Shown here in pieces: positions 1,711-15,374 of a stretch of 64,000 nucleotides of DNA. Made by a program: the position numbers and the translations under genes. Each line of letters opens with the position of its first letter. The stretch's first letter is position 1. The notes beneath the pieces are model-generated. The model ran no database searches. It was not told where the DNA came from and worked only from the letters and a program-made list of their open reading frames with translations. Origin of the DNA: an uncultured Clostridia bacterium (GTDB taxonomy: Bacteria > Bacillota > Clostridia > UBA1381); contig CALXWJ010000005.1 of assembly GCA_944392335.1 (NCBI GenBank), positions 9-64,008 of the forward strand, given 5' to 3'.

Positions 1711-2234
1711 ATATTTGATGATACAAATCTTTTTGCAAATATTTTGGCTTTGCAAACGATAGTGTTATCAATCCTGATAAAAATTTGATAACATTGCGTC
1801 AGATAAGGCGGATAATATGAATGATATCAAATAGTACAAATACGAGAGCAAATATCTCCTATATAAATTTGTTTAAGTTTTGGATTTGAACGAAGAGTGG
1901 GAATGATGTTAAAAATGAAATTTTCGGCTTAAGCATACGATGTTTGTGATGTTAGTATCTTGAGCGGCAACGTCTTGACGTATTTGAATTATTCATTAAG
2001 AAATAGCTAACTGATTTTTACCGGTTAGCTTTTAACATATGTGCCGAGCAAAGCTTTACATGGCTTTGGTGTTCCAAACGACAATCTCGATTGTTTCGTA
2101 TTTAGGGAAAACCTGATATCACAAAAATGAAAATAAGCTTTTTAAAATTTTTATTATTGCCTGCCATGTTTATTTTTAGCTGTTTATTGGAATATTATGG
2201 ATATGAGTTAAATAATAAAAAGGAGCTGCAAGCT

Positions 2235-5200
2235 ATGCTTCAGATTAAGCACATTTGTAAACAATATAAAACCGGAAGTTTGGTGCAGAATGCTTTAAAC
2301 AACGTCAGTCTGAATCTTCGTGATAATGAATTTGTGGCCATTCTTGGTCCAAGCGGTTCCGGAAAAACCACCCTGCTCAATATTATAGGAGGACTTGACC
2401 GTTACGACAGCGGAGACCTCATTATTAACTCAATCTCCACAAAAAAATACAAAGACAGGGATTGGGATTCTTACAGAAATCATACTATTGGTTTTGTTTT
2501 TCAAAGTTATAACCTGATCCCCCACCAGACGGTACTGTCCAATGTGGAGCTTGCCTTGACCATTTCCGGTGTATCCAAGGCTGAGAGGAAAAAACGGGCA
2601 AAACGGGCTTTAGAGCAGGTAGGGTTAGGGGAGCAGCTGTATAAGAAGCCCAATCAGATGTCAGGCGGTCAAATGCAGCGTGTCGCCATTGCACGAGCTC
2701 TTGTAAACGACCCGGATATTTTGCTTGCCGACGAGCCTACAGGCGCATTGGACAGCGAAACCAGCGTTCAGGTTATGGAATTATTGAAAGAGGTGGCAAA
2801 AGACCGCCTGGTTGTCATGGTGACCCACAATCCGGAGCTTGCCGAGCGTTATGCTACAAGGATCGTGAATCTGAAAGATGGAACAATCCGTTCGGACACT
2901 GATCCATATGAGGTCAACGAGACCGATCAAAGTGCACCTGTCCATAAGAATATGGGAAAATCGTCAATGTCTTTGCTGACAGCGCTTTCCCTCAGCTTTA
3001 ACAATCTGCGGACGAAAAAGGCCAGGACAATTCTGACCTCCTTTGCAGGCTCTATCGGCATTATTGGAATTGCCTTGATCTTATCGATCTCCAATGGTGT
3101 AAACGGCTATATTAAAACGTTGGAAGAAGACACGCTTTCTGAGTACCCGCTTCAAATTCAAAACTCAACCATGGACCTTGCCTCCATGATGTCCGGCTCT
3201 TCTGCAAGCCGATCAGAAGACAGAATTGGAGAGGTCACGGTTTCCCAAACGTTGAGCAATATGTTCTCAAAGGTGGAACCCAATGACTTGGAATCTCTAA
3301 AACAATATTTTGACAGCGGCAGCAGTGGAATAGAACCATATACAAAGGCAATTGAGTATTCTTATAACATAGCGCCTCAAATTTTCAGCGTAGATGATGA
3401 CAGTGTCCGGCAGGTAAACCCCGACCGATCTTTTTCTGCATTGGGCATTGGCACAGATTCCGGAAGCTTCATGTCCTCACTGATGAATACGGATGTATTT
3501 TATCAAATGCCTGAGAACACAGAATTGTTTCGGGAGCAGTACGACGTAAAGGCCGGGCGCTGGCCGCAGAGTTATAATGAATGTGTGGTCGTCCTTTCTT
3601 CCAACGGCAGTGTCAGCGATTTTATGCTGTATACGCTGGGGCTTAGAGACCATATCGAATTGGATGAAATGATCCGGTCATTTCTTGAGGATGAAGCAGT
3701 AGATGCACCGGAAAATATGGGCTCGTACCGGTATGATGATTTCCTTGGCATCACTTTCAAATTGGTAAATGTATCGGATTATTATGAATATGACAATAGC
3801 TATAATGTGTGGAAGGATAAGTCGGATGATAAAACGTATATCCGGAATTTGGTCAGCAGCGGCGAAAACATTTCTATTGTTGGCGTAGTGCAGCCTGCGC
3901 AAGATGCCTCGGCCGCTATGCTCAGCATGGGTATTGCGTATCCGGCTTCTTTGACAGAACATATAGTGGAGCAAGCCGCAGTCAGCCCGATCGTTCAGGA
4001 ACAGATGCAAAATCCCGACATCAACGTGCTGACGGACAGCTCCTTTGGTGAGGACAGCCAACAGAGCCGTTTTGATGTAAACACTCTGTTTACAATTGAC
4101 GAAGATGCTTTGAAGAATGCGTTTTCATTTGATACCAACGTATTGAATGTTGATCTGTCGGACTATTTGGATATGGACAGCAGTTCTCTAAACCTGTCTG
4201 ATATGATTGATTTTGATAATATTACTTTTGATTTATCGGATTTGCCGGAGACGGACTTGGGCGATCTCATGGGGCAATTGGAACTTTCCATCTCACCTAA
4301 AGAGATTCAGCAGCTTGCGGCCGATCTCTTTCAAGGATATGATTCTTATGTATCAGAACATCCGGAGGCGGACTATTCCAGACTGAATGAATATTTCATA
4401 GCATATTTGCAAACGCCGCAGGTGCAACAGAGCATAAAAGACGAAATTGGACAAATTATCCAATCGGAAGCGGATGTGACCGTATTTCCGGAACAGCTGC
4501 AGATGTTGATACAGGATATTATGTCCGGATTCCGGGAGTATGCGTCTGCTAACGGGCTGACCGATCCGAAGCACTTTGGCGAATATCTGACAGAGTATTT
4601 GCAAACACCTGAAGTACAACAAAAGATCACAGAGGGCGCCGCTGATATTTTGCAGATAAGCGGCGATATTACGGCTTTTTCAGAGCAAATGCAGTTGTTG
4701 GTCAGCAATATTGTGACCGGCTATCAGGAATATGCCGCCGCGAATCAACTTCCAGACCCCAGAAAAATGGGTGAACATTTTGCCGCCTATTTAGAGACGT
4801 CGCAGGCCCGGCAGCAGATTGCCGATGGAACGGCCTCTCTTCTGGATATGGAAGCATTGCAGGCACAGATTTCCAATGTGTTAAGCGGTGTGCCCTCTTA
4901 CACCAATGCGATGACTCAGGCGATGCAAAATCAAATTTCCTCCGTTATGCATCAGGTAATGGGACAAATGTCGGCAAGTATGGGAAGTACTATACAGCAG
5001 GCGATGGGTCAATTGGAAAGCAATATGGAAAATGCTTTTCAATTTGACACAGACGCCTTTGCCGATGCCATCCGGATGAATATGAGTGAAGGCGAACTGG
5101 CCCAACTGCTGCGTTCGCTTATGTCCGGTGAAGATACGTCCTATAACACAAATCTAAGAAGCTTCGGGTATGCCGATTTAAAGAACCCAAGTCAAATCTC

Positions 5201-5762
5201 TATTTATCCGTATGATTTTGAGAGCAAGGCGGCTATCACTGAAATTCTTGATAATTATAACAGCCTCATGGAAGCACAGGGAGATGAAGGCAAGATGATC
5301 AGCTATACGGATATAGTGGGGACACTGATGTCCTCCGTAACTAAAATCGTGGACACTATCTCTTATGTCTTGGTTGCGTTTGTTGCGATTTCGCTTGTTG
5401 TGTCGTCTATTATGATAGGTGTCATTACTTATATCAGCGTTTTGGAGAGGAAAAAGGAAATAGGTATTCTGCGTGCCATCGGTGCATCTAAACAAAATGT
5501 TTCGCAAGTATTCAATGCGGAAACCTTTATTATTGGCTTGTGTGCCGGCGTAATCGGTATTGGGCTGACGTTGATCCTTTTGGTCCCGGGAAATGCTCTC
5601 ATACATTCTCTTGCCGGGACAACTAATATCAATGCATCGCTCCCTGCTGCTTATGGAGCTATTCTGATTGTACTCAGTGTGGTTTTGACACTGATCGGCG
5701 GTCTGATCCCATCCAAAAAAGCGGCCAAGAGCGATCCGGTCACAGCATTGAGGGCAGAATAA
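2235..5762 (+). CDS. Fused ABC ATPase / FtsX-type (MacB-like) permease with a very large extracytoplasmic domain
   Basis: Walker A GPSGSGKTT, signature MSGGQMQR and Walker B ILLADEPT, followed by TM1, a soluble region of about 760 aa, and three C-terminal FtsX-like TM helices. Start moved from the ORF-track 2127 to ATG 2235 (MLQIKHI...) behind RBS AAAGGAG. Confidence 0.85.
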   Translation: MLQIKHICKQYKTGSLVQNALNNVSLNLRDNEFVAILGPSGSGKTTLLNIIGGLDRYDSGDLIINSISTKKYKDRDWDSYRNHTIGFVFQSYNLIPHQTVLSNVELALTISGVSKAERKKRAKRALEQVGLGEQLYKKPNQMSGGQMQRVAIARALVNDPDILLADEPTGALDSETSVQVMELLKEVAKDRLVVMVTHNPELAERYATRIVNLKDGTIRSDTDPYEVNETDQSAPVHKNMGKSSMSLLTALSLSFNNLRTKKARTILTSFAGSIGIIGIALILSISNGVNGYIKTLEEDTLSEYPLQIQNSTMDLASMMSGSSASRSEDRIGEVTVSQTLSNMFSKVEPNDLESLKQYFDSGSSGIEPYTKAIEYSYNIAPQIFSVDDDSVRQVNPDRSFSALGIGTDSGSFMSSLMNTDVFYQMPENTELFREQYDVKAGRWPQSYNECVVVLSSNGSVSDFMLYTLGLRDHIELDEMIRSFLEDEAVDAPENMGSYRYDDFLGITFKLVNVSDYYEYDNSYNVWKDKSDDKTYIRNLVSSGENISIVGVVQPAQDASAAMLSMGIAYPASLTEHIVEQAAVSPIVQEQMQNPDINVLTDSSFGEDSQQSRFDVNTLFTIDEDALKNAFSFDTNVLNVDLSDYLDMDSSSLNLSDMIDFDNITFDLSDLPETDLGDLMGQLELSISPKEIQQLAADLFQGYDSYVSEHPEADYSRLNEYFIAYLQTPQVQQSIKDEIGQIIQSEADVTVFPEQLQMLIQDIMSGFREYASANGLTDPKHFGEYLTEYLQTPEVQQKITEGAADILQISGDITAFSEQMQLLVSNIVTGYQEYAAANQLPDPRKMGEHFAAYLETSQARQQIADGTASLLDMEALQAQISNVLSGVPSYTNAMTQAMQNQISSVMHQVMGQMSASMGSTIQQAMGQLESNMENAFQFDTDAFADAIRMNMSEGELAQLLRSLMSGEDTSYNTNLRSFGYADLKNPSQISIYPYDFESKAAITEILDNYNSLMEAQGDEGKMISYTDIVGTLMSSVTKIVDTISYVLVAFVAISLVVSSIMIGVITYISVLERKKEIGILRAIGASKQNVSQVFNAETFIIGLCAGVIGIGLTLILLVPGNALIHSLAGTTNINASLPAAYGAILIVLSVVLTLIGGLIPSKKAAKSDPVTALRAE

Positions 5763-5780: not shown

Positions 5781-7028
5781 ATGGCTTATAATGAGCTTAT
5801 AAAGAATTTTGAAAAGGTCAGAACATATATGCGTGAGTTTTATGTGTATGGCTTCAAGAGTAGAACTGAATATGATGCCAAAAGCGCACGCTCCTATGAT
5901 GATGAGCGTCGCCGGCTTGAGAGCTGGCTGGGAGACTATATGCGCTTTACTCAAACTGCTGAAGGTAAAAATGTCTTCTTATCGGTTGACAGCCGTGTCA
6001 CTCGAAAGAATCCCTTTTATAAAGCGTGGAAAGCAAAGAGCTTTACGGATGGAGATATCGCACTGCACTTTGCGATCTTTGATATCCTGTATACACCGGA
6101 AATCAAGAAAACTCTTACTGAGCTTATTGAGGAAATCGACGAGCGTCTGTCCTTGGGAATGACCTTTGATGAATCTACCCTCAGAAAGAAACTGAAGGAG
6201 TATGCCGGGGAGGGTATCATTCAGATTGAAAAAGAGGGACGTAAGGTTTTATACAGCAGAAGCCCGGATACCGATATTTCGGCGTTGGACGATGTGATTG
6301 ACTTTTTCAGCGAGGTGGCTCCCTGCGGAGTTATCGGTTCTTTCCTGCAGGACAAGCGTCCCGAACACGATGAGCTATTCTCGTTCAAGCATCATTACTT
6401 AACTCAGGCTATGGACAGTGATGTGATGGCAGAACTCTTTGAGGCGATCCATGAGCACAGATACATTACCATCGACAATCTGGAAAAGCGCTCGGGCAAA
6501 GTGAGGGCAATTTGCCTGGTACCTCTCAAAATCTTTATAAGTGCTCAGAACGGCCGCCAGAATCTGATTGCATTCCATGAGAAAACTAACCGCCTTAACT
6601 CATACCGATTGGATCATATATACAATGTCCGGATCGAGAACGAGACCTGTGAGAAGTTTGATGATTTGCGGGAGGCTCTTTGCAAGGCGGAATGTTATAT
6701 GTGGGGTGTGAATGGCAAATGGAACATTAAGCATGCGGAACATGTGGAGTTTGAAATCAAGATCGAAGACGACGAGCAATTCATAGTTCGCAGATTAGAG
6801 CGTGAGAAGCGATGCGGCCGTATTGAAAAAATTGACGGGAATCATTATCGTTACATAGCGGATGTGTTTGACACAACGGAAATGCTGCCATGGATTCGTA
6901 CCTTTATTTCTCGTATTACAAAAATGAACTTTTCTAACCGGACAGCTGAGAACAAATTTAAGTCTGACATCCGGGAAATGTATCGTATGTACGGTATTGA
7001 CGGAGGTGACGATCATGATATTCAGTGA
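5781..7028 (+). CDS. WYL-domain transcriptional regulator (HTH-WYL-WCX architecture), paralog 1
   Basis: WYL-like segment VPLKIFISAQNGRQNLIAFHEKTNRLNSYRLDHIYNV followed by a C-terminal WCX-like domain. ATG 5781 lies 10 nt after GGAGG and 18 nt after the ABC stop codon. Confidence 0.7.
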   Translation: MAYNELIKNFEKVRTYMREFYVYGFKSRTEYDAKSARSYDDERRRLESWLGDYMRFTQTAEGKNVFLSVDSRVTRKNPFYKAWKAKSFTDGDIALHFAIFDILYTPEIKKTLTELIEEIDERLSLGMTFDESTLRKKLKEYAGEGIIQIEKEGRKVLYSRSPDTDISALDDVIDFFSEVAPCGVIGSFLQDKRPEHDELFSFKHHYLTQAMDSDVMAELFEAIHEHRYITIDNLEKRSGKVRAICLVPLKIFISAQNGRQNLIAFHEKTNRLNSYRLDHIYNVRIENETCEKFDDLREALCKAECYMWGVNGKWNIKHAEHVEFEIKIEDDEQFIVRRLEREKRCGRIEKIDGNHYRYIADVFDTTEMLPWIRTFISRITKMNFSNRTAENKFKSDIREMYRMYGIDGGDDHDIQ

Positions 7029-7923
7029 GTTATACTCTGCCTATTATAATACGGTTGCAAAAATTATTGAGGCATCATTTGATCCGGAGGCTACAGAGAA
7101 AGACCTTCAGATGTGCGTTGTCAAGGAGGCTTTCTCTGAAAGTGTGCTGACCATTTTACCTGCATTGAAATCGGGTAAATGGCCGTTGCTGAAAGAAGAC
7201 CTTTCTCCTGTTCTGCTCCATAAGCCGACAATGCCGCTGACTATCCTTGAAAAGCGATGGCTAAAAGCGATTGCTGATGATCCGAGAGTAAAGCTGTTTG
7301 GTATTGAGTTTCCTGAGTTGGATGATGTAGAGCCTCTTTTCACAAGGGATGATTACAAAATTTATGATCAGTATGCGGATGGGGATCCTTTCGAGGATGA
7401 GAGCTACATCAGGAATTTCCGGCTGATGCTCTCGGCGATCAAGAATGACCGTCCCGTTAGAATCACAATAATGAACAGACACGGAAAAGAAGTGCGGGTC
7501 CGGTTCTATCCCAAGGGCTTTGAATATTCCGTAAAGGATGACAAGCTCCGTATAATTGCCACAGGATGCAAATTCAAGCAGTTCAACCTGGGAAGAGTGG
7601 TAAGCTGTGATTTCTACAATGGATATGGCCCGTGGAGAGAGAAGCCGCGGGTTGAATGCCGGAAGGAGCTTACCTTGCTGATAACAAATGAGCGTAATGC
7701 GCTGGAAAGAGCGATGCTCCACTTTGCGCATTTTGAAAAGCAGGCTGAACGCCTTGAGGACAATAAGTACATACTGCGTTTGAAGTATTATGAAAATGAT
7801 GAAACCGAAATCGTTATTCGTGTGCTTTCATTCGGACCATATGTGAAGGTTTTAGAGCCTCAAAGCTTCGTAAATTTAATAAAAGAACGATTGATTTCTC
7901 AAAAAAGTTGCGAATTAAGATGA
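7015..7923 (+). CDS. WYL-domain protein, paralog 2 (PafB/PafC-like pairing)
   Basis: WYL-like segment VRVRFYPKGFEYSVKDDKLRIIATGCKFKQFNLGRVVSCD plus a WCX-like C-terminus. ATG 7015 follows GGAGG and overlaps the upstream gene by 14 nt. Confidence 0.65.
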   Translation: MIFSELYSAYYNTVAKIIEASFDPEATEKDLQMCVVKEAFSESVLTILPALKSGKWPLLKEDLSPVLLHKPTMPLTILEKRWLKAIADDPRVKLFGIEFPELDDVEPLFTRDDYKIYDQYADGDPFEDESYIRNFRLMLSAIKNDRPVRITIMNRHGKEVRVRFYPKGFEYSVKDDKLRIIATGCKFKQFNLGRVVSCDFYNGYGPWREKPRVECRKELTLLITNERNALERAMLHFAHFEKQAERLEDNKYILRLKYYENDETEIVIRVLSFGPYVKVLEPQSFVNLIKERLISQKSCELR

Positions 7924-7939
7924 GTTCGCAACTTTTTTT
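7907..7939 (+). terminator. Intrinsic terminator after the WYL pair
   Basis: GTTGCGAA-loop-(G)TTCGCAAC hairpin followed by T7. It overlaps the stop codon of the second WYL gene. Confidence 0.7.
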
Positions 7940-7941
7940 CC

Positions 7942-7970
7942 GTGAAATAAAAGGTTATGATCTGTATAAT
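7942..7970 (+). promoter_or_regulatory. Candidate promoter of the ncRNA-array/rtcB transcript (GTGAAA-17 nt-TATAAT)
   Basis: Perfect -10 at 7965-7970 preceded by TG. The -35 at 7942-7947 is weak. Confidence 0.4.
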
Positions 7971-8012
7971 AATAGTCGTAAGATGCAGACAACAAATGGC
8001 AGCCACGTGCAG

Positions 8013-8100
8013 AAGGTACTTACAGCAATCCTTCCAATCACAGAGAAGAATTAAAGATATTTGGAGTCGGCGGGCAAAAGTCCGTTAAAGAATGTACCTT
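8013..8100 (+). ncRNA. Stem-closed RNA module A (Y-RNA-like candidate)
   Basis: Closing stem AAGGTAC (8013-8019) / GTACCTT (8094-8100). The 5' arm is followed by the ACAGCAAT box shared with modules C, D and E. Confidence 0.4.
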
Positions 8101-8108
8101 GTTGTTAA

Positions 8109-8188
8109 AGATGCATACAAAAACCGTAGTCAATGATGACACGCTTCTCCTTGAGTTGGCGTGAGGGTGATGCCGAAAGACTGCATCT
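8109..8188 (+). ncRNA. Stem-closed RNA module B
   Basis: Closing stem AGATGCA / TGCATCT and internal hairpin CACGC..GCGTG followed by a GAGGGTGATG box also present in module D. 8181-8188 can alternatively pair with 7981-7988. Confidence 0.35.
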
Positions 8189-8191
8189 GAA

Positions 8192-8286
8192 AAGGCACCG
8201 ACAGCAATGACGAATAGCTAAGTGGTTATAGCAGGCGGTTTATATCCGTCCCTCGCGGGTCCGAATCCCGCTTCAAATGGTGCCTT
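8192..8286 (+). ncRNA. tRNA-mimic RNA module C (YrlA-like candidate)
   Basis: Closing stem AAGGCACC / GGTGCCTT with an ACAGCAAT box. Contains a D-arm-like GCTA-AGTGGTTA-TAGC, an anticodon-arm-like GGCGG-TTTATAT-CCGTC, and a T-arm GCGGG-TCCGAAT-CCCGC (8255-8271). The acceptor-like region pairs by only 3 bp and there is no CCA. Confidence 0.6.
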
Positions 8287-8295
8287 GTTTTATAA

Positions 8296-8413
8296 AAGAC
8301 GCGAACAGCAATTACATATTTTATATTACTGAATATTGACCTGATGACCGGTACTTGCTTTCGGGGCAAGCGAGGGTGATGTAAATGTCATCACATGTAA
8401 AAAAGCGCGTCTT
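8296..8413 (+). ncRNA. Stem-closed RNA module D
   Basis: Closing stem AAGACGCG / CGCGTCTT with an ACAGCAAT box. Internal hairpins CTTGC..GCAAG and GTGATG-TAAATGT-CATCAC, plus a GAGGGTGATG box. Confidence 0.45.
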
Positions 8414-8420
8414 GTAATTA

Positions 8421-8533
8421 AAGGCATCTACAGCAATGAATTGGAAAGATATGTCGGAGCACATCCATTGCCGCGATCGGTAACACTTGACACCGACGAA
8501 CTATTATACGGGTTCAAATCCCGGTGATGCCTT
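8421..8533 (+). ncRNA. tRNA-mimic RNA module E (YrlA-like candidate)
   Basis: Closing stem AAGGCATC / GATGCCTT with an ACAGCAAT box. Canonical T-arm CGGG-TTCAAAT-CCCG (8509-8523) sits directly before the 3' strand of the closing stem. The module ends 31 nt before the rtcB ATG. Confidence 0.6.
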
Positions 8534-8564
8534 GCAGAAAAAATGTGCAGAAAGGAGCAGCACA

Positions 8565-9773
8565 ATGTTTGAAATCAAAGGAAAATCAAATACCGCGATA
8601 TGCTATGCTACAGTAGTTGAAGATGAAGCCATTGAGCAGATCCGGAGAATGTGTGACTATGATTTTACAAGCGGATCCAAGATCCGGATTATGCCGGATG
8701 TCCATGCCGGAAAGGGATGTACAATCGGTACTACTATGACGATTACAGACAAAGCAGTACCCAACATCGTCGGCGTCGATATAGGATGCGGCATGTATAC
8801 CGTGGAGCTCGGACAGGTCAATATTGATTTTGAGAAAGTAGACGAAGCTGCTCACTTTATTCCCGGCGGCAGAGATGTCTGGGAGGGCCGTATGGAGCGT
8901 TTCGATCTTACCGGCCTTTGCTGTTATAGAAATTTGAAGAATACAAAGCGTCTGGAAAGGAGTTTGGGTACTTTAGGCGGCGGCAACCATTTTATCGAGA
9001 TAGACGCTTCATCAGACGGCACCAAATATCTGGTTATACACTCCGGCAGCCGTAACTTGGGTAAGCAGGTCGCTGAGTATTATCAGCAGCTTGCCATTGA
9101 CCTGAATTCCGGAAAGGAAGACTACTTTAAAAAGAAAGATGAGCTGATACTTACTTATAAAGAGCAAGGCCGTCGTGCGGAGATTCAGACTGCTTTGAAG
9201 GCTATGGAAAAGGAGTGGCAAGCAAAAGAGCCTACTATTCCTGCAGATCTTTGCTACCTTTACGATTCCTATCTGGAGGATTATTTGCACGATGTTGAGA
9301 TCTGCCAGCAGTTTGCAAAGCGCAGCCGTGAAAGAATGGCACAGATCATCTTAGAGCATACCGGAATGGCTGCTCTGTCAGCGTTTCACACAATACATAA
9401 TTATATCGATACTGAGGAGATGATCCTGCGTAAGGGCGCAATTTCTGCACATAAAGATGAGCTTGTTTTGATCCCTATCAATATGAGGGACGGAAGCGTG
9501 CTGGCAAGAGGAAAGGGAAATCCTGATTGGAACTTCTCCGCGCCGCATGGCGCCGGCAGGATCATGTCAAGAGCCAAGGCAAGGGAGACGCTTGACCCGG
9601 AGGAATACAAGATGACAATGGAAGGTATTTATACCACTTCCGTAAATGAAGCAACAATCGACGAAGCGCCGATGGCGTATAAGTCTCTTGCCGATATCAT
9701 AGGTGATATCCGGGAGTCCGTCGATGTGGTAGAAATTTTGAAACCTATTTATAACTTTAAGGCGTCGGACTAA
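8565..9773 (+). CDS. rtcB: RtcB-family RNA 3'-phosphate/2',3'-cyclic phosphate ligase
   Basis: Motifs MPDVHAGKG, GVDIGCGM, GGGNHFIE, HSGSRNLG and PHGAGR. Start set to ATG 8565 (MFEIKG...) behind RBS AAAGGAG; the ORF-track extension from 8487 runs through RNA module E. Confidence 0.92.
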   Translation: MFEIKGKSNTAICYATVVEDEAIEQIRRMCDYDFTSGSKIRIMPDVHAGKGCTIGTTMTITDKAVPNIVGVDIGCGMYTVELGQVNIDFEKVDEAAHFIPGGRDVWEGRMERFDLTGLCCYRNLKNTKRLERSLGTLGGGNHFIEIDASSDGTKYLVIHSGSRNLGKQVAEYYQQLAIDLNSGKEDYFKKKDELILTYKEQGRRAEIQTALKAMEKEWQAKEPTIPADLCYLYDSYLEDYLHDVEICQQFAKRSRERMAQIILEHTGMAALSAFHTIHNYIDTEEMILRKGAISAHKDELVLIPINMRDGSVLARGKGNPDWNFSAPHGAGRIMSRAKARETLDPEEYKMTMEGIYTTSVNEATIDEAPMAYKSLADIIGDIRESVDVVEILKPIYNFKASD

Positions 9774-9810
9774 TGGATTCTGACGGGCTGTATATGAACG
9801 GAGGGAAAAA

Positions 9811-11274
9811 ATGTTAAACTATTTGAAAGAAGAATCTGATATGACTCTGACCGAAAACGGTGCAGCAGCCTATAAAAGCACCTCATCCTGTTGTTTGGAT
9901 CTGTTTGCCGTCATTGGTGCAATCCGCAGAGAGTCTGAGAAGGAGATCATTGACCGGTTTATAAAGGCGTATGCTGAGAACAGCGATATCGCGATGAAAA
10001 TCCTGTTTTTCGGCCGTGATGTGCGCGGAGGTTTGGGTGAGCGCCGGGTGTTTCGTGTTATCCTGAACTGGCTGGCAGATCACGAGCCGGAGTCTTTGCG
10101 TAAAAATATCGCATTGATTCCGGAGTACGGCCGATTTGATGACCTGGCGTCCTTGATTGGTACTGCATGCGAGGAGGATGCAATGAAGGTGATCCGTGAT
10201 CAGTTAAAAAAGGATATGGAGAAAGATGCAGAGGTTTCTTTACTTGCAAAATGGCTTCCTTCTGTCAACGCGACCAACAAGGAGACTGTACATATTGGTA
10301 AACGAATCGCCCGTTATCTTGGCATGAGCGATGCTCAGTATCGTAAGACCCTCGTGGGGCTGCGCAAAAAAATCCATATCGTGGAGAACAACCTGCGTGA
10401 AAAAGATTACTCTTTTGACTACTCCAAGCAGCCGTCAAAAGCAATGTTTAAGTATCGAAAAGCGTTTGCAAGAAACGACGGTGAGCGTTACCGGCAGTTT
10501 CTGGAGCAGGTGCAAAACGGTACAGCCACCATACATACCGGTACTTTGATGCCGTATGATATCATCGCTCCATGCTTTGGAGACTTGTCTGCAAGACGCA
10601 GAATACCTGAATCCGAACGCAGAGCAATGGATGTTTCATGGAATTCTTTAGAGGATTTCGGTACAAACGAGAATGCTCTCGTAGTTGTTGACGGTTCAGG
10701 TTCTATGTATGCCTATGACGGGCCTATGCCGATAGCAGTGGCATTGTCTTTGGGAATTTATTTTGCAGAGCGTAATACCGGAGTATTTCGTAACCATTTT
10801 ATTACTTTTTCCGAAAGACCTCAGTTGGTGGAGATCAAAGGAAGGGATATAGTTGAAAAGGTCAGGTACTGTGCTGAGTATAATGAGGTCGCAAACACTA
10901 ATCTTCAAGCTGTGTTCGAGCTGATTTTAAAGGCTGCGGTAAAACATTCTGTTTTGCAGGAGGAGATGCCTAAAAAGCTTTATATCGTTTCGGATATGGA
11001 GTTTGATAGTTGTATATGCAAAGCAGATGTCACCAACTTTTCATATGCGAAGAAGTTATTTGAAGACAATGGATACCATTTGCCTGAGATAGTGTTTTGG
11101 AATGTGGCAAGCAGAAATAGGCAGCAGCCTGTCACAAAAAATGAGATGGGTGTGGCGCTTGTTTCGGGCTGTACCCCAAGACTCTTTTCAATGGTAGCCG
11201 GTGGCGCAGCTTCCCCTTATACCGTGATGATGGAGATCATCGAGTCAGAGCGTTATGCGGTTATTTCCGCATAA
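9811..11274 (+). CDS. DUF2828-like protein with C-terminal vWA domain (possible divergent Ro/TROVE analogue)
   Basis: N-terminus LTENGAAAYKSTSSCCLDLF and FGRDVRGGLGER match my recollection of the DUF2828 family. MIDAS-like VVVDGSGSM at mid-protein, and VSDMEFD. RBS GGAGGG upstream. Confidence 0.65.
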   Translation: MLNYLKEESDMTLTENGAAAYKSTSSCCLDLFAVIGAIRRESEKEIIDRFIKAYAENSDIAMKILFFGRDVRGGLGERRVFRVILNWLADHEPESLRKNIALIPEYGRFDDLASLIGTACEEDAMKVIRDQLKKDMEKDAEVSLLAKWLPSVNATNKETVHIGKRIARYLGMSDAQYRKTLVGLRKKIHIVENNLREKDYSFDYSKQPSKAMFKYRKAFARNDGERYRQFLEQVQNGTATIHTGTLMPYDIIAPCFGDLSARRRIPESERRAMDVSWNSLEDFGTNENALVVVDGSGSMYAYDGPMPIAVALSLGIYFAERNTGVFRNHFITFSERPQLVEIKGRDIVEKVRYCAEYNEVANTNLQAVFELILKAAVKHSVLQEEMPKKLYIVSDMEFDSCICKADVTNFSYAKKLFEDNGYHLPEIVFWNVASRNRQQPVTKNEMGVALVSGCTPRLFSMVAGGAASPYTVMMEIIESERYAVISA

Positions 11275-11293
11275 TCCGGTCAAGCCTGTCTTT

Positions 11294-11326
11294 AAAGAGG
11301 TGATGGATGCAAGCATCACCTCTTTT
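11294..11326 (+). terminator. Intrinsic terminator after the rtcB-DUF2828 pair
   Basis: AAAGAGGTGATG-loop-CATCACCTCTTT hairpin followed by a short T run. Confidence 0.7.
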
Positions 11327-11581: not shown

Positions 11582-12478
11582 TTAATGATTTTTTTTGTAT
11601 TCTTTCGGCAGCATTTGAAAGTAGCCTTTAAAAGCAGTTGAAAATTTGCTTTGACTGTCATAACCCACAGCTGATGCGACTTCAGCAATACTCATATTTG
11701 ATTCCAGCAGCATTTTAGCCGCTTCCCTCATCCGGTGTTCTTTCATATGTGCGGCAATAGATGTCCCGTAAACAGATTTAAACAACGATTTCATTGTAGT
11801 AGGATTGATGAAATATTGCTTTGATAATTCCTCAATGGTGAAACGCCGGTTGAGATTGTGCAAAAGTTGTTCATGAATTTTGCGTATTACTTCTATTTGA
11901 TCAGTTTGATACCCTGTTATACGATGACCGGAGATATTTTCTGCTTGATAAAGATAAAGCAGCAGCTCAAGCACCTTTATTTTTTGATATGCCAATTGCA
12001 TATTCATCGGTTGATTGTAAAAAAACTGAAAGATACATTCTGTCTGTTCATTTCCCGTCAGAGAGATAAAAGTCTCATTTTTACATAGTTTTTCATACAG
12101 TGTAGTGCCGGTGATCCCTGTTTCAAGCAACAGCTGCGGCGGATTTTTTGTCAACTCATTCAAATCAATATAAATCATAATGCCTTCATAACAGTTATTT
12201 GGCAGGTTAATTTCAGAGTCAGCACATAATTTCATTGTATGGATAGAAAAGTCTCCAGCACCTAGATAAACATAGTTTCCTTTTTCCAACTTCCAACCGA
12301 TTCGCCCGCTGTGACAATAATTAATTACCATAATATGGTCGTATTGTTTATGATGAATGGAAAAATTATTCCCTGTAAGGGATAAATAACGCAATTCTAT
12401 TCCCGAAAAGAGGAGAATTGTGTTTATATCCTCAATACAAGACAACTTTTGTTGTATTTGACTTAGTTCTTGTTTCAT
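11582..12478 (-). CDS. AraC-family transcriptional regulator (N-terminal cupin-like sensor)
   Basis: C-terminal double HTH (..FTIEELSKQYFINPTTMKSLFKSVYG.. / ..SIAEVASAVGYDSQSKFSTAFKGYF..). Start set to MKQELSQ behind AGGAG. Confidence 0.8.
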   Translation of the reverse strand: MKQELSQIQQKLSCIEDINTILLFSGIELRYLSLTGNNFSIHHKQYDHIMVINYCHSGRIGWKLEKGNYVYLGAGDFSIHTMKLCADSEINLPNNCYEGIMIYIDLNELTKNPPQLLLETGITGTTLYEKLCKNETFISLTGNEQTECIFQFFYNQPMNMQLAYQKIKVLELLLYLYQAENISGHRITGYQTDQIEVIRKIHEQLLHNLNRRFTIEELSKQYFINPTTMKSLFKSVYGTSIAAHMKEHRMREAAKMLLESNMSIAEVASAVGYDSQSKFSTAFKGYFQMLPKEYKKNH

Positions 12479-12494
12479 TGTTGTATCTCCTAAA

Positions 12495-12863
12495 TTATCG
12501 GTTTGGACAGGCAACCTCAATAACCTTCTCTATCATTTTATGAAGCAAGCGGCTTTGCTCCGTGTCTGATGCGTGATAATAAACCTCTTTTCCATCTCGA
12601 CGGCTTGTAACTAACCCGCTGCTGCGAAGCAGCCGCAGGTGATGTGAAACTGCCGGGCTGGATATATCCAGCATTGCGGAAATATTGATAACACATTCTT
12701 CACAGTGGCATAAAAGCCAAAAAAGCCTGATTCGTGTTGTGTCACCCAATTGCTTAAAAATGTCAGCAATCATTTGAAATTTCTCAATATTGTTTAATTC
12801 TTTCTTTATGCTGCGAGAAATGGTTTCATCGTTGTGCTTGTGTGGTAATATATTATTTTTCAT
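12495..12863 (-). CDS. ArsR/SmtB-family metal-sensing repressor (CadC-like)
   Basis: Motifs LGDTTRIRLFWLL, CEECV and ISSPAVSHHLRLLRSSGLV. Start set to MKNNILP behind AAGAGG. Divergent from the metal ATPase genes. Confidence 0.8.
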   Translation of the reverse strand: MKNNILPHKHNDETISRSIKKELNNIEKFQMIADIFKQLGDTTRIRLFWLLCHCEECVINISAMLDISSPAVSHHLRLLRSSGLVTSRRDGKEVYYHASDTEQSRLLHKMIEKVIEVACPNR

Positions 12864-13028
12864 ATTTATACCTCTTTTTCTCCCGATTAGAAATGCTTTT
12901 CTCCCTTTCGGCAAGAAGAACATTCAAAGTATTGACTTCTTTGCATATTGATATTATACTATAGATACAACAATTAAACAAGTATTTAATCGTAAAATTA
13001 ATAAAAAATTCAGAAAGGAAGATCATAA

Positions 13029-13247
13029 ATGAAAAAAACTTATAAAATTGAAGTGGACTGTGCAAACTGTGCTAATCTGATGGAAGATGCTGCCCGTAAA
13101 ACAAACGGCGTACAGAACGTTACAGTAAACTTTATGACACAGAAAATGATCGTTGAGTTTGACGACGGACAGGAGCAGCAGGATGTTATGCAGAGAGTTA
13201 TCGCTGCCTGCAAAAAAGTAGAGCCGGACTGTGAAATTTTTATGTAA
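13029..13247 (+). CDS. Heavy-metal-associated (HMA) domain protein
   Basis: 72-aa ferredoxin-like fold pattern with a metal site DCANCA. Sits immediately upstream of the P1B ATPase. Confidence 0.7.
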   Translation: MKKTYKIEVDCANCANLMEDAARKTNGVQNVTVNFMTQKMIVEFDDGQEQQDVMQRVIAACKKVEPDCEIFM

Positions 13248-13358
13248 TATAGACTGTTTTTGACTAATGCACTTTGAATACGGTCATGGCAGTTTTAAGG
13301 TGTTATTTTCACTGCACAACAATTAAACAATTGAGCAATTTTTGAAGGGAGTTTTTAT

Positions 13359-15374
13359 ATGCAAGAACTAATAATAAACATATTGTTAGGTGTTGTTATC
13401 TTAACAGCTCTGATACTTCTTGCCGTTATCGGCAGCCGCAAGAATGGTATGACAAAAAAACAAAAAACGATTATGGTGCGTATTTTGATTTCTTCAGCTA
13501 TGCTGTTGGGATTGCAGTTTCTCTCGTCAGAAATGTTTTCACAGCTTGACGAATATCTGTTTTTGTCAGCAGGACGTTGGATGCGCTTTATTTTATATTT
13601 GATCGACTATTTTATTATCGGTTATGATATTTTGAAAAAAGCTTTCAAAGGAATACTTAATCGCCGGGTATTTGATGAAAATTTTTTGATGGCAGTTGCA
13701 ACTGTAGGGGCATTGGCATTAGCGGTGTATGAAAACGGAGATTATTTGGAAGCTATTGCGGTTATGTTGTTTTACCAAATCGGAGAATGGTTTCAGAGCT
13801 ATGCTGTAGGAAAAAGCCGCCGAAATATCAGCGATCTGATGGATATCCGCCCTGATTACGCTAATATTGAGAGAAATGGAACGATAGAACATGTTGCTCC
13901 TGATGAAGTTGGAATTGGCAGCGTAATCGTAGTGCAGCCGGGTGAAAAGGTGCCGATTGACGGTATTATTGTTGAAGGCAATTCCAGCTTGAATACAAGT
14001 GCTTTGACAGGCGAGAGTATTCCTCGTGAGGCTAAGGCCGGCGATGAGATAATCAGCGGCTGTATCAATATGACCGGCGTTTTGAAAATTCAAACTACAA
14101 AAGAATTTGAAGAATCCACGGTTTCCAAAATATTGGATTTGGTTGAGAATGCCAGTTCCAGGAAGTCCAGGTCAGAGAGCTTTATTTCAAGATTCGCAAA
14201 AATTTATACGCCTGCTGTGTGTTACAGCGCGTTGGCTTTAGCAATTTTCCCTCCGTTGATCCGTATGCTTGCAATGGGATTATCTGCTGATTGGGGAACG
14301 TGGATATACAGAGCTTTGACATTCCTTGTAATAAGCTGTCCGTGCGCGCTTGTTATCAGTATCCCTCTTAGCTTTTTTGCCGGAATCGGCGGAGCAAGCC
14401 AGGCAGGAATTTTAGTAAAAGGCTCTAACTATCTGGAAACGCTTTCAAAAGTAAAAACAGTTGTATTTGACAAAACGGGAACACTTACACAGGGCGTTTT
14501 TGAAGTAAACGGAATTCATCATAATGAAATGGAAAATGCAAAGCTCATTGAGTATGCTGCACTGGCGGAAAGCGCCTCGTCGCATCCAATCAGCAAGAGC
14601 TTGCAGCGGGCTTACGGAAAAGAGATCGATCGTTCCCGTGTAAGTGATATTCAGGAAATCAGCGGCAACGGTGTTATTGCTAAAGTAGACGGTATCGAGG
14701 TTGCCGCAGGCAATGATAAACTGATGAAGCAGCTCAACATCGCATATATAGACTGCCATAGTACGGGAACGATCATTCATATGGCAATCGGAGGTGAATA
14801 CAGCGGACATATTGTTATTTCCGATATTGTAAAGCCCCATTCGAAGGAAGCGGTTTCTTCTTTGAAGGCAGAAGGTGTTGAAAAAACGGTTATGCTGACC
14901 GGTGATGCAAAAAAGGTTTCTGAGCAGGTTGGTGCATCTCTTGGTATTGATACCGTTTACAGTGAGCTTCTTCCTGCGGATAAGGTGTCTAAGGTTGAAG
15001 ATTTACTGAAGACGAAAACCCCAAATGCAAAATTGGCTTTTGTAGGTGACGGTATCAATGACGCACCGGTATTGTCAAGAGCAGATATTGGAATCGCAAT
15101 GGGCGCACTGGGATCGGATGCCGCAATCGAGGCGGCAGACATTGTTTTGATGGACGATGATCCTATAAAAATCTCAAAAGCAATTAAAATTTCGAGAAAA
15201 TGTTTACGAATTGTATATGAGAATATTGCTCTGGCATTGGGAATCAAGTTTGCCTGCTTAATATTGGGCGCTTTAGGTATAGCAAATATGTATTTGGCAA
15301 TTTTTGCTGATGTAGGCGTAATGATTATTGCGGTACTCAACGCGATTCGCTGTCTGTACGTGAAAAAGCTGTAA
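13359..15374 (+). CDS. P1B-type heavy-metal (Cd/Zn/Co-type) translocating ATPase
   Basis: Motifs TGES, SCPCALVISIP (CPC), DKTGTLT and GDGINDAP. Confidence 0.9.
   Translation: MQELIINILLGVVILTALILLAVIGSRKNGMTKKQKTIMVRILISSAMLLGLQFLSSEMFSQLDEYLFLSAGRWMRFILYLIDYFIIGYDILKKAFKGILNRRVFDENFLMAVATVGALALAVYENGDYLEAIAVMLFYQIGEWFQSYAVGKSRRNISDLMDIRPDYANIERNGTIEHVAPDEVGIGSVIVVQPGEKVPIDGIIVEGNSSLNTSALTGESIPREAKAGDEIISGCINMTGVLKIQTTKEFEESTVSKILDLVENASSRKSRSESFISRFAKIYTPAVCYSALALAIFPPLIRMLAMGLSADWGTWIYRALTFLVISCPCALVISIPLSFFAGIGGASQAGILVKGSNYLETLSKVKTVVFDKTGTLTQGVFEVNGIHHNEMENAKLIEYAALAESASSHPISKSLQRAYGKEIDRSRVSDIQEISGNGVIAKVDGIEVAAGNDKLMKQLNIAYIDCHSTGTIIHMAIGGEYSGHIVISDIVKPHSKEAVSSLKAEGVEKTVMLTGDAKKVSEQVGASLGIDTVYSELLPADKVSKVEDLLKTKTPNAKLAFVGDGINDAPVLSRADIGIAMGALGSDAAIEAADIVLMDDDPIKISKAIKISRKCLRIVYENIALALGIKFACLILGALGIANMYLAIFADVGVMIIAVLNAIRCLYVKKL

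Follow-up and report, generated by a model that had tools for sequence, protein, structure and literature searches.

Does a stretch of gut Clostridia DNA carrying two WYL regulator genes, a leader without open reading frames, a gene for the RNA ligase RtcB and a gene for a DUF2828-type vWA protein encode an RNA-repair or RNA-surveillance system built, as in Salmonella, around a Ro-type protein and its small RNAs? This was the suggestion of a first-pass annotation of the window (the whole 64,000-nt stretch that was analysed), and it is largely supported: the open reading frames and the leader without any, the hairpin and promoter-like site, and the motifs of RtcB and of the MIDAS all lie where they had been placed (Table 1), and on the three points named in advance as capable of overturning it, namely the fold of the vWA protein, the conservation of the leader and the synteny of the genes, the results came out in its favour. 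The locus is, in our judgement, probably an inducible RNA-repair or RNA-surveillance operon around a Ro-like ribonucleoprotein (RNP); as regards binding, processing and function, we infer a WYL-controlled, Ro/Y-RNA-like RNP together with RtcB.

Table 1 Features of the locus, in window coordinates
Feature	Position	Strand	Remarks or basis
WYL1, 415 aa	5781..7028	+	conserved N-terminal ~90 aa; winged HTH ~100-185; WYL ~215-285; WCX
WYL2, WYL-WCX protein, 302 aa	7015..7923	+	overlaps WYL1 by 14 nt
Hairpin GTTGCGAA-N9-TTCGCAAC, then T7	7908..7939	+	read directly from sequence
21-nt element TTCGCAACTTTTTTTCCGTGA	7925..7945	+	candidate WYL-pair operator or upstream promoter element
Promoter: -35-like GTGAAA (7942-7947), 17-nt spacer, -10 TATAAT (7965-7970)	7942..7970	+	scan, 10/12 positions match
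Degenerate handle 5' strand AAGATGCAG-ACAACAA	7980..7995	+	predicted transcript start
Module A, handle AAGGUAC / GUACCUU, ACAGCAA 8022-8028, two-hairpin cargo	8013..8100	+	MFE fold
Module A' (degenerate), AAGAUGCAU-ACAAAAA ... UGCAUCU-G	8108..8189	+	MFE fold
Module B, handle AAGGCACC / GGUGCCUU, ACAGCAA 8201-8207, tRNA-like cargo	8192..8286	+	Rfam, fold
Module C, handle AAGACGCG / CGCGUCUU, ACAGCAA 8305-8311, long hairpin cargo	8296..8413	+	fold z-score -2.5
Module D, handle AAGGCAUC / GAUGCCUU, ACAGCAA 8430-8436	8421..8533	+	MFE fold
RtcB RNA ligase, 402 aa	8565..9773	+	Pfam RtcB 1.5e-56; phrog_1075 6e-130
Ro60-like protein (predicted fold), 487 aa, DUF2828 helical region + DUF7788 vWA, complete MIDAS	9811..11274	+	Pfam, AF2, Foldseek
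Likely operon terminator, hairpin GAGGTGATG...CATCACCTC, then TTTT	~11294..11326	+	read from sequence

Gene order, regulators and promoter

Across 80 Clostridia loci the gene order is WYL1-WYL2, then the leader, then the RtcB and DUF2828 genes in either order, and conservation extends jointly to the four proteins, the RNA array and the promoter element. Of the 54 loci with enough flanking sequence, 43 have the WYL pair. RtcB is frequent yet not obligatory, being adjacent in 48 of 66 loci and absent from the other 18. In the window it is preceded by a ribosome-binding site (AAGGAG, 8552-8557), and its motifs MPDVHAG, GVDIGCG, GGGNHF, HSGSRNLG and PHGAGR align with the catalytic motifs of P. horikoshii RtcB, as had been claimed.

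The two WYL reading frames and their 14-nt overlap hold up, the ortholog alignments beginning at MAY... and MIFSELY respectively, but their description as a paralogous HTH-WYL-WCX pair does so only in part. A winged HTH (wHTH) is supported for WYL1, and hhalign links the two ortholog alignments, in the WYL region only (Prob 82%, E 1e-5); BLASTP, however, finds no similarity between the two proteins, and no HTH was detected in WYL2. WYL1 matches Pfam WYL (4e-5) and WYL2 Pfam WCX (9e-6), while the PADLOC WYL model matches both (5e-12 for WYL1; 6e-9, residues 125-293, for WYL2). Among orthologs, the WYL match is found in 18/18 for WYL1 (with a weak PaaX-type wHTH match in 12/18) and in 6/18 for WYL2, for which the WCX match is found in 18/18. 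A profile search with WYL1 gave weak matches to the WYL region of PafB/PafC and to ArsR-type wHTH proteins, and its AF2 model (pLDDT 58, rising to 80-89 in the wHTH and WYL regions) matches DriD, CapW, BrxR and PafBC (E 7e-9 to 1e-5). WYL1 thus has the wHTH-WYL-WCX architecture of these regulators, and the two genes are adjacent, as in pafB/pafC; unlike them, however, WYL1 carries an extra conserved N-terminal region, WYL2 is without a detectable HTH, and the target would be an RNA-repair operon instead of DNA-damage or defence genes.

A candidate binding site for the pair is the 21-nt element, which is unique in the window even when up to 3 mismatches are allowed. All 55 loci that have the WYL pair carry it, and it is also found with divergent WYL genes; of the 9 loci that lack the pair and have enough upstream sequence, none carries it. 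In 59 of ~69 instances, 19 nt separate it from the -10 box. The GTGAAA-17-TATAAT site proposed earlier is confirmed, and the consensus over 60 loci is ...CCGTGAnA-N16-GTAnAAT. As the element overlaps the -35 region, it may be likened to the sites in the activation complexes of PafBC and DriD, where the binding site likewise overlaps the -35 region (PDB entries 7P5X, 9FND, 9PFV).

This bears on the hairpin at 7908-7939, which had been taken for a terminator. It is certainly present in the sequence, but its 5' arm lies within the last WYL2 codons (KSCE), while its 3' arm and T-run form part of the conserved promoter/operator element; it may nevertheless also terminate WYL transcription. The scanner admits loops of up to 8 nt, and the longer loop here is probably why the hairpin was passed over. 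The terminator proposed at the end of the operon can be seen in the sequence, though the scanner did not flag it.

RNA modules of the leader

No ORF of at least 50 aa lies within 7924-8486, and the leader folds, as had been proposed, into five stem-closed modules, each keeping its closing helix in the MFE fold; apart from the degenerate one at 8108-8189, all are canonical. The pattern AAGRYRCNNACAGCAA, with at most one mismatch, matches 5 times in the 64-kb window, all in 7980-8436, against 0.09 expected. The degenerate strand at 7980-7995 can pair with CTGCATCT at 8181-8188, and in two relatives (L011, L016) a canonical first module stands at its position; the counterpart of module A' is likewise canonical (ACAGCAA, CUUG) in close relatives.

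T-arms had been reported in two modules, and both were found. The cargo of module B consists of a D arm, an anticodon-like arm, a T arm and a 3-bp acceptor stub; the Rfam tRNA model matches it at 8212-8274 (40.9 bits), but only over model positions 5-66, so that the acceptor stem is truncated. Its fold has a z-score of -2.7, and 11 of 21 pairs show compensatory changes in a 13-sequence alignment. The second T-arm (8509-8523) ends the cargo of module D and abuts the handle, this type of cargo being shared with L008, L011, L012, L014 and L016.

Over the Clostridia loci the modules, of which there are 1-7 per leader, follow a common design: 5'-A-AAGRYRCNN-ACAGCAA-(variable cargo)-NNGYRYCUU-G. Since a 7-bp helix was used to define modules, only four observations serve as independent tests. 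Firstly, the 7-bp closing helix occurs at 199 of 207 ACAGCAA occurrences (96%), as against 9% of random positions; secondly, an eighth pair, which played no part in the selection, forms in 73% of handles and shows four Watson-Crick types; thirdly, G directly follows the closing helix in 196/199; and fourthly, all 189 full modules in 884 kb share the strand of the genes, the opposite strand having 0. Handle pairs 4-6 are GC in some handles and AU in others. The modules, 184 of the 189 lying upstream of the operon, are kept in orthologous loci with compensatory base changes; the closing helix covaries, the single-stranded ACAGCAA is invariant, and an A...G flanks the module. In Rfam 15 no family matches the handle, tRNA being the only model that matches the module RNAs, and the ACAGCAA handle appears to be undescribed so far.

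An array lying between a promoter and the first downstream gene, with no terminator between, might of course act in cis as a 5' UTR (attenuator or riboswitch-like) for rtcB and the DUF2828 gene, or might represent operator arrays or mobile repeats acting at the DNA level. We regard this as very improbable: the number of copies ranges from 1 to 7, the cargo of one module bears no relation to that of another, some modules lie downstream of the gene or in phage tRNA arrays, away from a 5' UTR, and compensatory changes together with complete strand specificity speak for RNA structure rather than DNA sites.

Comparison with Ro60 and Y RNAs

The DUF2828-like N-terminus and vWA MIDAS of the 487-aa protein are borne out by Pfam (DUF2828 1e-38, DUF7788 2e-45) and by the invariance of D294-x-S296-x-S298, T363 and D395 in 38 homologs; the protein also matches phrog_850, ‘RNA-binding protein’ (2e-134). 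Sequence comparison, whether with Pfam TROVE or by a PDB profile search, brings up no match to Ro. However, the protein's AF2 model (pLDDT 74.5, moderate confidence) supports a Ro60-like fold: the best 13 Foldseek PDB matches are all Ro60/TROVE (E 6e-9 to 2e-4; TM ~0.5), in alignments of 500-570 columns that include the helical region as well as the vWA. Full-length matches include 9kop (6e-9), 9l5y, 2nvo, 1yvr, 2i91, 1yvp and 9nf8; whole-length matches are to Ro60/TROVE only, vWA-only matches beginning at E 5e-3. Like Xenopus Ro (1YVR/1YVP) and D. radiodurans Rsr (2NVO), the protein is predicted to have helical repeats and a C-terminal vWA with MIDAS, its predicted fold is matched over the full length by the Ro60 of Thermus phage phiLo (9KOP/9L5Y), and its gene adjoins candidate RNA partners on the same strand; unlike these proteins it is shorter, and sequence identity to them is just 10-14%.

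The Salmonella rsr-yrlBA-rtcBA operon is induced by damaged tRNA (PMC7790460). Like the window, where the ring is a predicted one, it combines a Ro-type ring-plus-vWA protein with RtcB (PMC7790460, PMC4201824), and it likewise has several small RNAs with 5'/3' closing stems, one of them tRNA-like, and a dedicated regulator with a ligand-sensing domain. The window differs in having DUF2828/DUF7788 instead of Pfam TROVE, no RtcA, and a WYL-WCX pair with a sigma-70-type promoter where Salmonella has sigma-54 and the CARF-containing RtcR.

The rules of Ro-Y RNA interplay (PMC4201824, PMC12135203) are a precedent as well. With Y RNAs and YrlA (PMC4201824) the modules share a 5'/3' terminal stem, conservation of an unpaired motif on its 5' side, an ‘effector’ domain that is modular and mimics tRNA, and the occurrence of several RNAs per locus. 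The earlier description of a Y-RNA-like array stands as far as stem-closed modules and tRNA-like cargo are concerned; membership of the Y RNA/YrlA family is rejected by sequence, the motif being ACAGCAA and not GNCGAA, the helix consensus also differing and no Rfam model but tRNA matching. Arrays of up to 7, and handles that can enclose complete tRNAs, are further differences. Mimicry of the YrlA type holds similarly in part: the cargo is tRNA-like, but in the window it is entered via the acceptor stem and is not permuted, whereas some phage relatives have the YrlA order (T arm, closed acceptor, D arm).

Phage relatives and possible function

The handle also lies beside DUF2828 genes in 6 of 8 cultured phages from eight host genera, a seventh (Vibrio nt-1) having one weak module candidate. 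Phage handles are often inside tRNA arrays, their cargo being tRNA-like, sometimes permuted as in YrlA and sometimes a real tRNA. In IMG/VR, 52 of 120 stretches matching a 14-base handle pattern have a full module (~2% expected by chance), and a broader scan found modules in 54 stretches, 18 of them with a DUF2828 gene (36-45% identity), none being found in the other two thirds within the short stretch fetched. The T5 tRNA array has no modules, nor was DUF2828 found in the 50 kb examined. Phage records of phrog_850 family proteins number 710, at 27-66% identity; this is the family of the phage ‘Ro-like RNA binding protein’, whose gene likewise adjoins tRNA arrays but, unlike in the window, has no RtcB or WYL pair nearby. 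The association of handle RNA with DUF2828 recurs in bacteria and phages that are very distant from one another. The module first proposed for this locus is present in Clostridia, but its RNA and DUF2828 core reaches well beyond them. Because RtcB is missing from phage loci as well as from the 18 bacterial ones, ligation is not intrinsic to the RNP.

The position of phage handles around bona fide tRNAs with encoded CCA (L188, L196, L089) could mean that the handle marks tRNAs and tRNA-like RNAs for processing or chaperoning, with DUF2828 as a maturation or quality-control factor instead of a Y-RNA-type scaffold. Modules abut, as in processed arrays, and Ro60 itself binds misfolded precursors (cf. 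the titles of PDB entries 2i91 and 9nf8). We nevertheless think this improbable, as most cargo would be unusable as tRNA (acceptor stems are truncated or closed, or the cargo is permuted or a plain hairpin), the window leader yields no tRNA call by ARAGORN, and arrays are kept in bacterial loci without any true tRNA.

Unlikely, too, but overlapping the main explanation rather than excluding it, is a decoy or sensor role, in which tRNA-like and tRNA-bearing modules would be bait for anticodon nucleases and other ribotoxins, held by the DUF2828 protein; cleavage products would feed back on the WYL sensors, RtcB would reseal, and the phage RNP would be a counter-defence protecting or replacing tRNAs. 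Consistent with this, the anticodon-like loops of the cargo vary widely, handles occur in phage tRNA arrays, and the WYL domains of DriD and CapW, structural matches of WYL1, bind single-stranded nucleic acids. Moreover, Bas63 gp130, described as Ro60-like, lies just upstream of tRNA genes and counters Ppl defence (bioRxiv 10.1101/2024.10.10.617714), and the related phage SUSP2 and other Felixounavirus records have DUF2828 at a similar position. On the other hand, the cargo of many modules is something other than tRNA, the loci share no conserved toxin or nuclease gene, and cargo cleavage is a supposition of the model.

In the WYL-controlled Ro/Y-RNA-like RNP that we favour, the WYL1/WYL2 pair would bind the 21-nt element at the -35 region and switch the promoter on when a signal of nucleic-acid damage occupies its WYL domains, on the pattern of DriD, PafBC and CapW. 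The transcript would start at the first handle and take in the array, rtcB and the DUF2828 gene, and abutting modules (...CUUG/AAAAGG...) might be cut apart into RNAs of 50-130 nt. Helix and ACAGCAA handle would bind each RNA to the DUF2828 protein, like Y RNA stems on the Ro60 rim, while the cargo, which varies and in at least one module resembles tRNA, would recruit or mimic tRNA-handling factors; the RNP might thereby present or screen broken tRNA-like RNAs for ligation by RtcB. As to phages, the PhageMaP authors' guess was that some of the neighbouring ‘tRNAs’ are Y RNAs; for the Ro-like proteins, for which earlier phage reports define no RNA partner, the handle RNA is a candidate.

The leader and its RNA handle

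Within the window two WYL regulator genes (WYL1 and WYL2) are followed by a leader, by RtcB and by the gene for a DUF2828/DUF7788 protein (the “Ro-like protein”, 487 aa), and when the locus was re-read all of the coordinates proposed for it in the first-pass annotation were found to be correct. The 14-nt overlap between the WYL genes, a promoter-like GTGAAA-17-TATAAT site and the distal hairpin, taken to be a terminator, are likewise present.

Coordinates of features in the window and of related elements in phage loci
Feature	Position	Strand	Remarks
WYL1	window 5781-7028		wHTH, WYL and WCX
WYL2	window 7015-7923		WYL and WCX
Hairpin + T7	window 7908-7939		T-run shared with 21-nt element
21-nt element	window 7925-7945		candidate operator, overlapping the -35 region
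Decayed handle strand	window 7980-7995	+	at predicted transcript start
Canonical module A	window 8013-8100	+	handle; folds individually
Decayed module A'	window 8108-8189	+	individual fold with closing helix
Canonical module B	window 8192-8286	+	handle; folds individually
tRNA-like cargo of module B	window 8212-8274		Rfam tRNA, 40.9 bits
Canonical module C	window 8296-8413	+	handle; folds individually
Canonical module D	window 8421-8533	+	handle; folds individually
RtcB	window 8565 (ATG start)	+	AAGGAG ribosome-binding site ahead; mechanically called TTG at 8487 is not the start
DUF2828/DUF7788 gene	window 9811-11274	+	Ro-like protein
Distal hairpin	window about 11294-11326		
Wyatt2 modules	L203 5450-5710		permuted cargo; motif variant GCAGCAA, helix base GUG...AGU
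Handle around tRNA-Ile	L188 1024-1139		ARAGORN tRNA
Handle around tRNA-Arg	L196 8184-8295		ARAGORN tRNA
Handle around tRNA-Tyr	L089 870-977		ARAGORN tRNA

The leader had been described as free of ORFs (there is indeed none of 50 aa or more in the 640 nt after WYL2) and as built from stem-closed modules, each of which does fold alone, with a closing helix and an unpaired 7-mer, ACAGCAA, that can be seen by eye to recur, each time after a short purine-rich strand. As the fold of the whole leader has a z-score of only -1.5, single-sequence folding at that scale is uninformative, and the case for modules is carried by module-wise and comparative analyses. For comparison, 80 loci (mostly from Oscillospiraceae, Lachnospiraceae, Christensenellales and other Clostridia) were taken from GTDB genomes encoding relatives of the Ro-like protein at 56-75% identity, and ahead of the first structural gene nearly all of them carry ACAGCAA, in 1 to 7 copies. 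The closing helix, which served as the criterion for module detection, was defined as the 7 nt ending two bases before ACAGCAA paired with a strand 12-330 nt downstream; a perfect 7-bp helix was found at 199 of 207 occurrences, as against 9% of random positions, and a G follows directly 3' of it in 196 of the 199. The resulting handle, i.e. the 7-mer after its 5' helix strand together with the closing 3' strand, has the consensus 5'-A-AAGRYRCNN-ACAGCAA-[cargo]-NNGYRYCUU-G-3', a module being the handle with its enclosed variable cargo. The middle pairs of the helix alternate G-C/A-U (or C-G/U-A), an eighth pair that played no part in detection is kept in 73% of handles and takes all four Watson-Crick types, and the flanking A and G are juxtaposed in 164 of 184 distinct handles. 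Over 884 kb of loci complete modules occur 189 times on the gene strand and 0 times on the opposite strand, with 184 of the 189 directly upstream of the operon, while in the 64-kb window the handle pattern has 5 matches, all within 7980-8436, where 0.09 would be expected; that the leader should have a purely cis-regulatory or DNA-level role is unlikely.

The decayed handle strand, AAGATGCAG-ACAACAA, can pair with CTGCATCT (8181-8188), which is the 3' strand of the decayed module, and the alternative pairings of CTGCATCT amount to nested or mutually exclusive helices around module A. Close relatives have this same arrangement, with a canonical first module in its place in two other loci (L011 and L016).

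The cargo is from 17 to 298 nt long (median 65) and is of many unrelated types. The commonest, seen in at least 26 loci, is tRNA-like, with D and T arms, an anticodon-like arm of 5 bp and an acceptor stub of 3 bp; in an alignment of 13 such sequences, including that of module B, compensatory changes are found in 11 of 21 consensus pairs, and the anticodon-like loops vary from locus to locus. One tRNA-like element, the cargo of module B, is recognised by Rfam in the window; most of its acceptor stem is gone, and ARAGORN finds no tRNA in the leader. A search for membership of the Y RNA/YrlA family gave a negative answer, the only Rfam match to the module array at E ≤ 1 being tRNA; at permissive E-values the window region and six phage loci together gave only tRNA, plus ROOL in phage A511, with none on the handles, and no family in Rfam 15 matches any handle in the loci scanned.

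The Ro-like protein, its neighbours and a candidate operator

In Pfam the Ro-like protein matches DUF7788 (2e-45) and VWA_2 (0.003), and the vWA MIDAS proposed for it is fully supported, residues D294, S296, S298, T363 and D395 being invariant among 38 homologs. There was no match to Pfam TROVE (PF05731) at E ≤ 0.01, nor did a PDB search using a profile of these homologs retrieve any Ro chain, so that only comparison of folds links the protein to Ro. For this comparison, which the first-pass annotation had recommended, an AlphaFold2 model was calculated from the 38 homologs (pLDDT 74.5, pTM 0.59), and its best 13 Foldseek matches in the PDB are all Ro60/TROVE structures (Thermus phage phiLo Ro60, D. 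radiodurans Rsr, and Xenopus and human Ro60), with E-values from 6e-9 to 2e-4, 500-570 aligned columns and TM-scores of about 0.45-0.55; vWA-only proteins come later in the list, at 5e-3 or worse. With moderate confidence, then, the model predicts a Ro-like fold comprising a helical-repeat region and a C-terminal vWA domain. The Ro-likeness of the family was already known to annotators, as homologs in cluster-L mycobacteriophages are annotated “Ro-like RNA binding protein”; PHROGs phrog_850 (“RNA-binding protein”) matches at 2e-134, and a literature search found no paper analysing the Ro-likeness of the DUF2828 family. DUF2828 also occurs in plants, with plant papers among those matched and a note of similarity to Arabidopsis in the record for phage Aeh1.

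A survey of gene neighbourhoods, also recommended earlier, revealed conserved synteny across the Clostridia loci: RtcB is adjacent to the Ro-like gene, before or after it, in 48 of the 66 loci with enough flank, while 43 of 54 have the WYL pair. Since both are variable, and the phage loci gave matches to neither, the invariant core consists of the Ro-like protein and the handle RNAs, with RtcB and the WYL sensor as a frequent bacterial add-on. Where RtcB is lacking, the genes downstream of DUF2828 have unrelated housekeeping or restriction-modification functions, and no alternative ligase came to light among them. RtcB is visibly decayed in two loci, being internally deleted in L012 (5160-5564) and cut down to its first 51 residues in L026 (7534-7686), with the Ro-like gene, WYL pair and RNA array remaining in each. 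In the window the catalytic residues of RtcB are intact by Pfam and motif alignment, the metal-binding and guanylylation motifs of P. horikoshii RtcB being retained as claimed, and neither RtcA nor RtcR was found by Pfam among the four ORFs of the operon.

Regarding the regulators, the description of a paralogous HTH-WYL-WCX pair needs some qualification. Both proteins have WYL and WCX domains and their WYL regions are related by profile comparison (BLASTP of WYL1 against WYL2 finds no similarity), but a winged HTH was detected only in WYL1, with WYL and WCX alone detected in WYL2. The AlphaFold2 model of WYL1 is of low quality overall (pLDDT 58); for this reason its Foldseek result was used at family level only (matches to DriD, CapW, BrxR and PafBC) and the domain arrangement was set aside. 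In Brotocaccenecus cirricatena (L008) the tblastn-derived WYL1 interval 1980-3206 translates with one internal stop codon, which could reflect a pseudogene, a frameshift or a coordinate artefact; the WYL1 coordinates in Yeguia hominis (L014) are identical to those in L008.

The hairpin and T-run at the end of WYL2 had been read as a terminator. Both are present, but the T-run is part of a 21-nt element, TTCGCARCTTTTTTTCCGTGA, that is much better conserved than the DNA around it, and as this element is retained both where WYL2 has its own separate terminator after it and where the WYL genes are divergent (Butyricicoccus loci), it must be more than a terminator. It has no second copy in the window. 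In 59 of about 69 instances a TAnAAT -10 box follows it at a distance of 19 nt, and it occurs in 55 of 55 loci with the WYL pair as against 0 of 9 without it (counting those with adequate upstream sequence), which is a correlation only; four loci without a detected WYL pair carry it also. Such a pattern is what an operator of the WYL pair would be expected to give, making the element a candidate for that role, and the activators PafBC and DriD use similarly placed sites. The expected transcription start is followed within a few bases by the first handle in many loci, so that the 5' end of the first RNA would be the start of the handle. The 5' arm of the hairpin encodes the conserved C-terminus of WYL2, Q-K-S-C-(E) (window 7904-7923), and the 3' arm is the conserved promoter element; conservation of the peptide may come partly from constraint on the DNA or RNA.

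As to the flanks, a fused ABC ATPase and FtsX permease (MacB-like, 1211 aa, window 2127-5762) has its stop 18 nt ahead of the WYL1 start, with no obvious promoter or terminator in this gap, and the WYL regulators may be co-transcribed with this transporter in this genome. Downstream (window 11582-15374) lie genes for an AraC-family regulator, an ArsR-type repressor, a small HMA metal-binding protein and a P-type heavy-metal ATPase, which appear unrelated to the operon; an ACAGCAA at 11572 has no handle context and is taken to be a chance occurrence.

Relatives in phages

When IMG/VR was scanned for one common variant of the handle, AAGGCACNNACAGCAA, 120 stretches were returned, 52 of which hold a complete module (helix and G) as against about 2% expected by chance; a broader scan of the same stretches found modules in 54. 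A DUF2828 gene (36-45% identity) was found in 18 of the 120, an association limited by the shortness of the stretches fetched. In phages, modules mostly sit within arrays of tRNA genes and share their strand. A complete tRNA with encoded CCA is enclosed by some of the handles, and ARAGORN calls tRNAs within the three listed in the table (CCA being encoded in one), so the same handle can flank real tRNAs in phage arrays. It is conceivable that the Ro-like protein chaperones such handle-flanked tRNA precursors, a role overlapping in part with the main mechanism set out below, but we consider this improbable. Permuted cargo having the topology of YrlA (T arm, closed acceptor hairpin, D arm) occurs in five IMG/VR stretches (L108, L115, L116, L136 and L180) and in Wyatt2.

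Among cultured phages the DUF2828 family is present in 710 of 50,697 records. Eight such phages, from eight host genera, were examined, and two to four modules lie directly beside the DUF2828 gene in SUSP2 (E. coli), A511 (Listeria), Wyatt2 (a mycobacteriophage), a Fletchervirus (Campylobacter), Chewbecca (Bacillus) and 6ec (Staphylococcus), with short modules of about 57-61 nt in SUSP2 and 6ec; Vibrio phage nt-1 has one weak candidate, and Aeromonas phage Aeh1 has no module within 4 kb of its DUF2828 gene. The base of the helix varies by lineage (AAG...CUUG, AG...CUG, GUG...AGU), while ACAGCAA, the helix and the trailing purine are kept. A 50-kb segment of T5 with its 25 tRNAs, taken as a negative control, contains no DUF2828 gene, and its array is free of handles.

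These phage contexts favour a reading of the cargo as a decoy or sensor, as does the PhageMaP finding that the Ppl defence is counteracted by Bas63 gp130, a Ro60-like protein whose gene lies upstream of tRNA genes (bioRxiv 10.1101/2024.10.10.617714); we regard this reading, which again overlaps partly with the main mechanism, as possible but doubtful.

Some other RNAs were encountered in these regions. In A511 (DQ003638.2) tRNA-Pro is followed by a ROOL match (L202 4495-5046, + strand; 87.5 bits, E 2.4e-16, short of the gathering score, 99.1) and then, about 650 nt further downstream, by three modules and the DUF2828 gene gp57, an arrangement that hints at a possible link between ROOL and the Ro-like RNP region. 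In Aeh1 an odd tRNA-like cluster (L204 7865-8330), including an annotated 122-nt “tRNA-Val” and several GGTTCGA-type T-arm motifs, lies 2.5 kb downstream of the DUF2828 gene. The tRNA region of T5 (L212, NC_005859 28-42 kb) contains eight annotated “stable RNAs with unknown functions”, some of them tRNA-like, and the ACAGCAA handle occurs in none of the eight.

Relation to Ro/Y RNA systems and proposed role

The locus would work like a Ro/Y RNA/RtcB module, yet by sequence it is outside the families that define one. The Ro-like protein lacks the TROVE sequence signature but has the predicted fold and the MIDAS of Ro60. The handle RNAs have ACAGCAA where the terminal stem of Y RNAs has GNCGAAN0-1G, or else GGUCCGA within a bulged helix; what they share with Y RNAs is a terminal stem, encoding within a few kb of the Ro gene on the same strand (189 of 189, and in cultured phages also) and, in at least one RNA, tRNA mimicry. 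In YrlA the topology is permuted (T arm, closed acceptor, D arm, with the Ro-binding stem replacing the anticodon stem), whereas module B is entered from the acceptor side and keeps its anticodon-like arm. RtcB is shared with rtcBA/RtcR operons, but here a WYL pair stands in place of the sigma-54/CARF regulator RtcR, and the operon lacks RtcA.

The Burroughs and Aravind survey of 2016 reportedly connects RtcB with Rot/TROVE-vWA proteins and also treats WYL sensors, so that the architecture at the protein level (RtcB, Ro-like vWA, WYL) may already be on record. Neither Rfam nor any paper found in a literature search on the DUF2828 family, Ro-like proteins and YrlA has the handle RNA with its modular cargo, its presence across tRNA arrays of phages, or the operator linked to the WYL pair.

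For expression, processing, binding and function of the operon and its RNAs, all of which we infer, the main mechanism would run as follows. A damage signal sensed by the WYL domains would switch on the promoter; the RNA array and the two structural genes would be transcribed as one, and the abutting modules cut apart; each module would bind the Ro-like protein through its helix and ACAGCAA, while the cargo, especially the tRNA mimics, would recruit or imitate tRNA-handling partners; and broken RNAs would be dealt with by the Ro-like RNP together with RtcB. There is a parallel in the Salmonella rsr-yrlBA-rtcBA operon, which is induced by damaged tRNA (PMC7790460), and in the rules for Ro/Y RNA complexes (PMC4201824, PMC12135203).

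More broadly, the handle ranges from gut Clostridia to phages of Escherichia, Listeria, Staphylococcus, Bacillus, Campylobacter and Mycobacterium, with the weaker candidate in Vibrio, and we see about an even chance that the DUF2828 Ro-like branch as a whole has its cognate partners in the ACAGCAA-handle RNAs, which would form an undescribed and very widespread class of modular RNP RNAs in which one protein-binding handle cages swappable cargo (tRNA mimics, permuted mimics or real tRNAs), and which bacteria couple to RtcB and WYL sensors for RNA repair while phages set the RNP in tRNA arrays as counter-defence. The handle is short, invariant and easily mutated, so binding and function are directly testable.

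To our knowledge, the cause of the link between Ro/Y RNAs and bacterial RtcB repair operons is poorly understood. The present locus shows the link in a second and independent form, in which the Ro-like family, the RNA signature and the sensor are all different, and this argues that the link is functional rather than accidental. The handle also provides a candidate RNA partner for a phage protein family labelled only “RNA-binding protein” or “Ro-like” in 710 cultured phage genomes, Bas63 gp130 being a putative phage relative of such a kind, and it marks unannotated small RNAs within phage tRNA arrays; a prokaryotic RNA partner for DUF2828 could, in addition, help in studying the eukaryotic members of the family.
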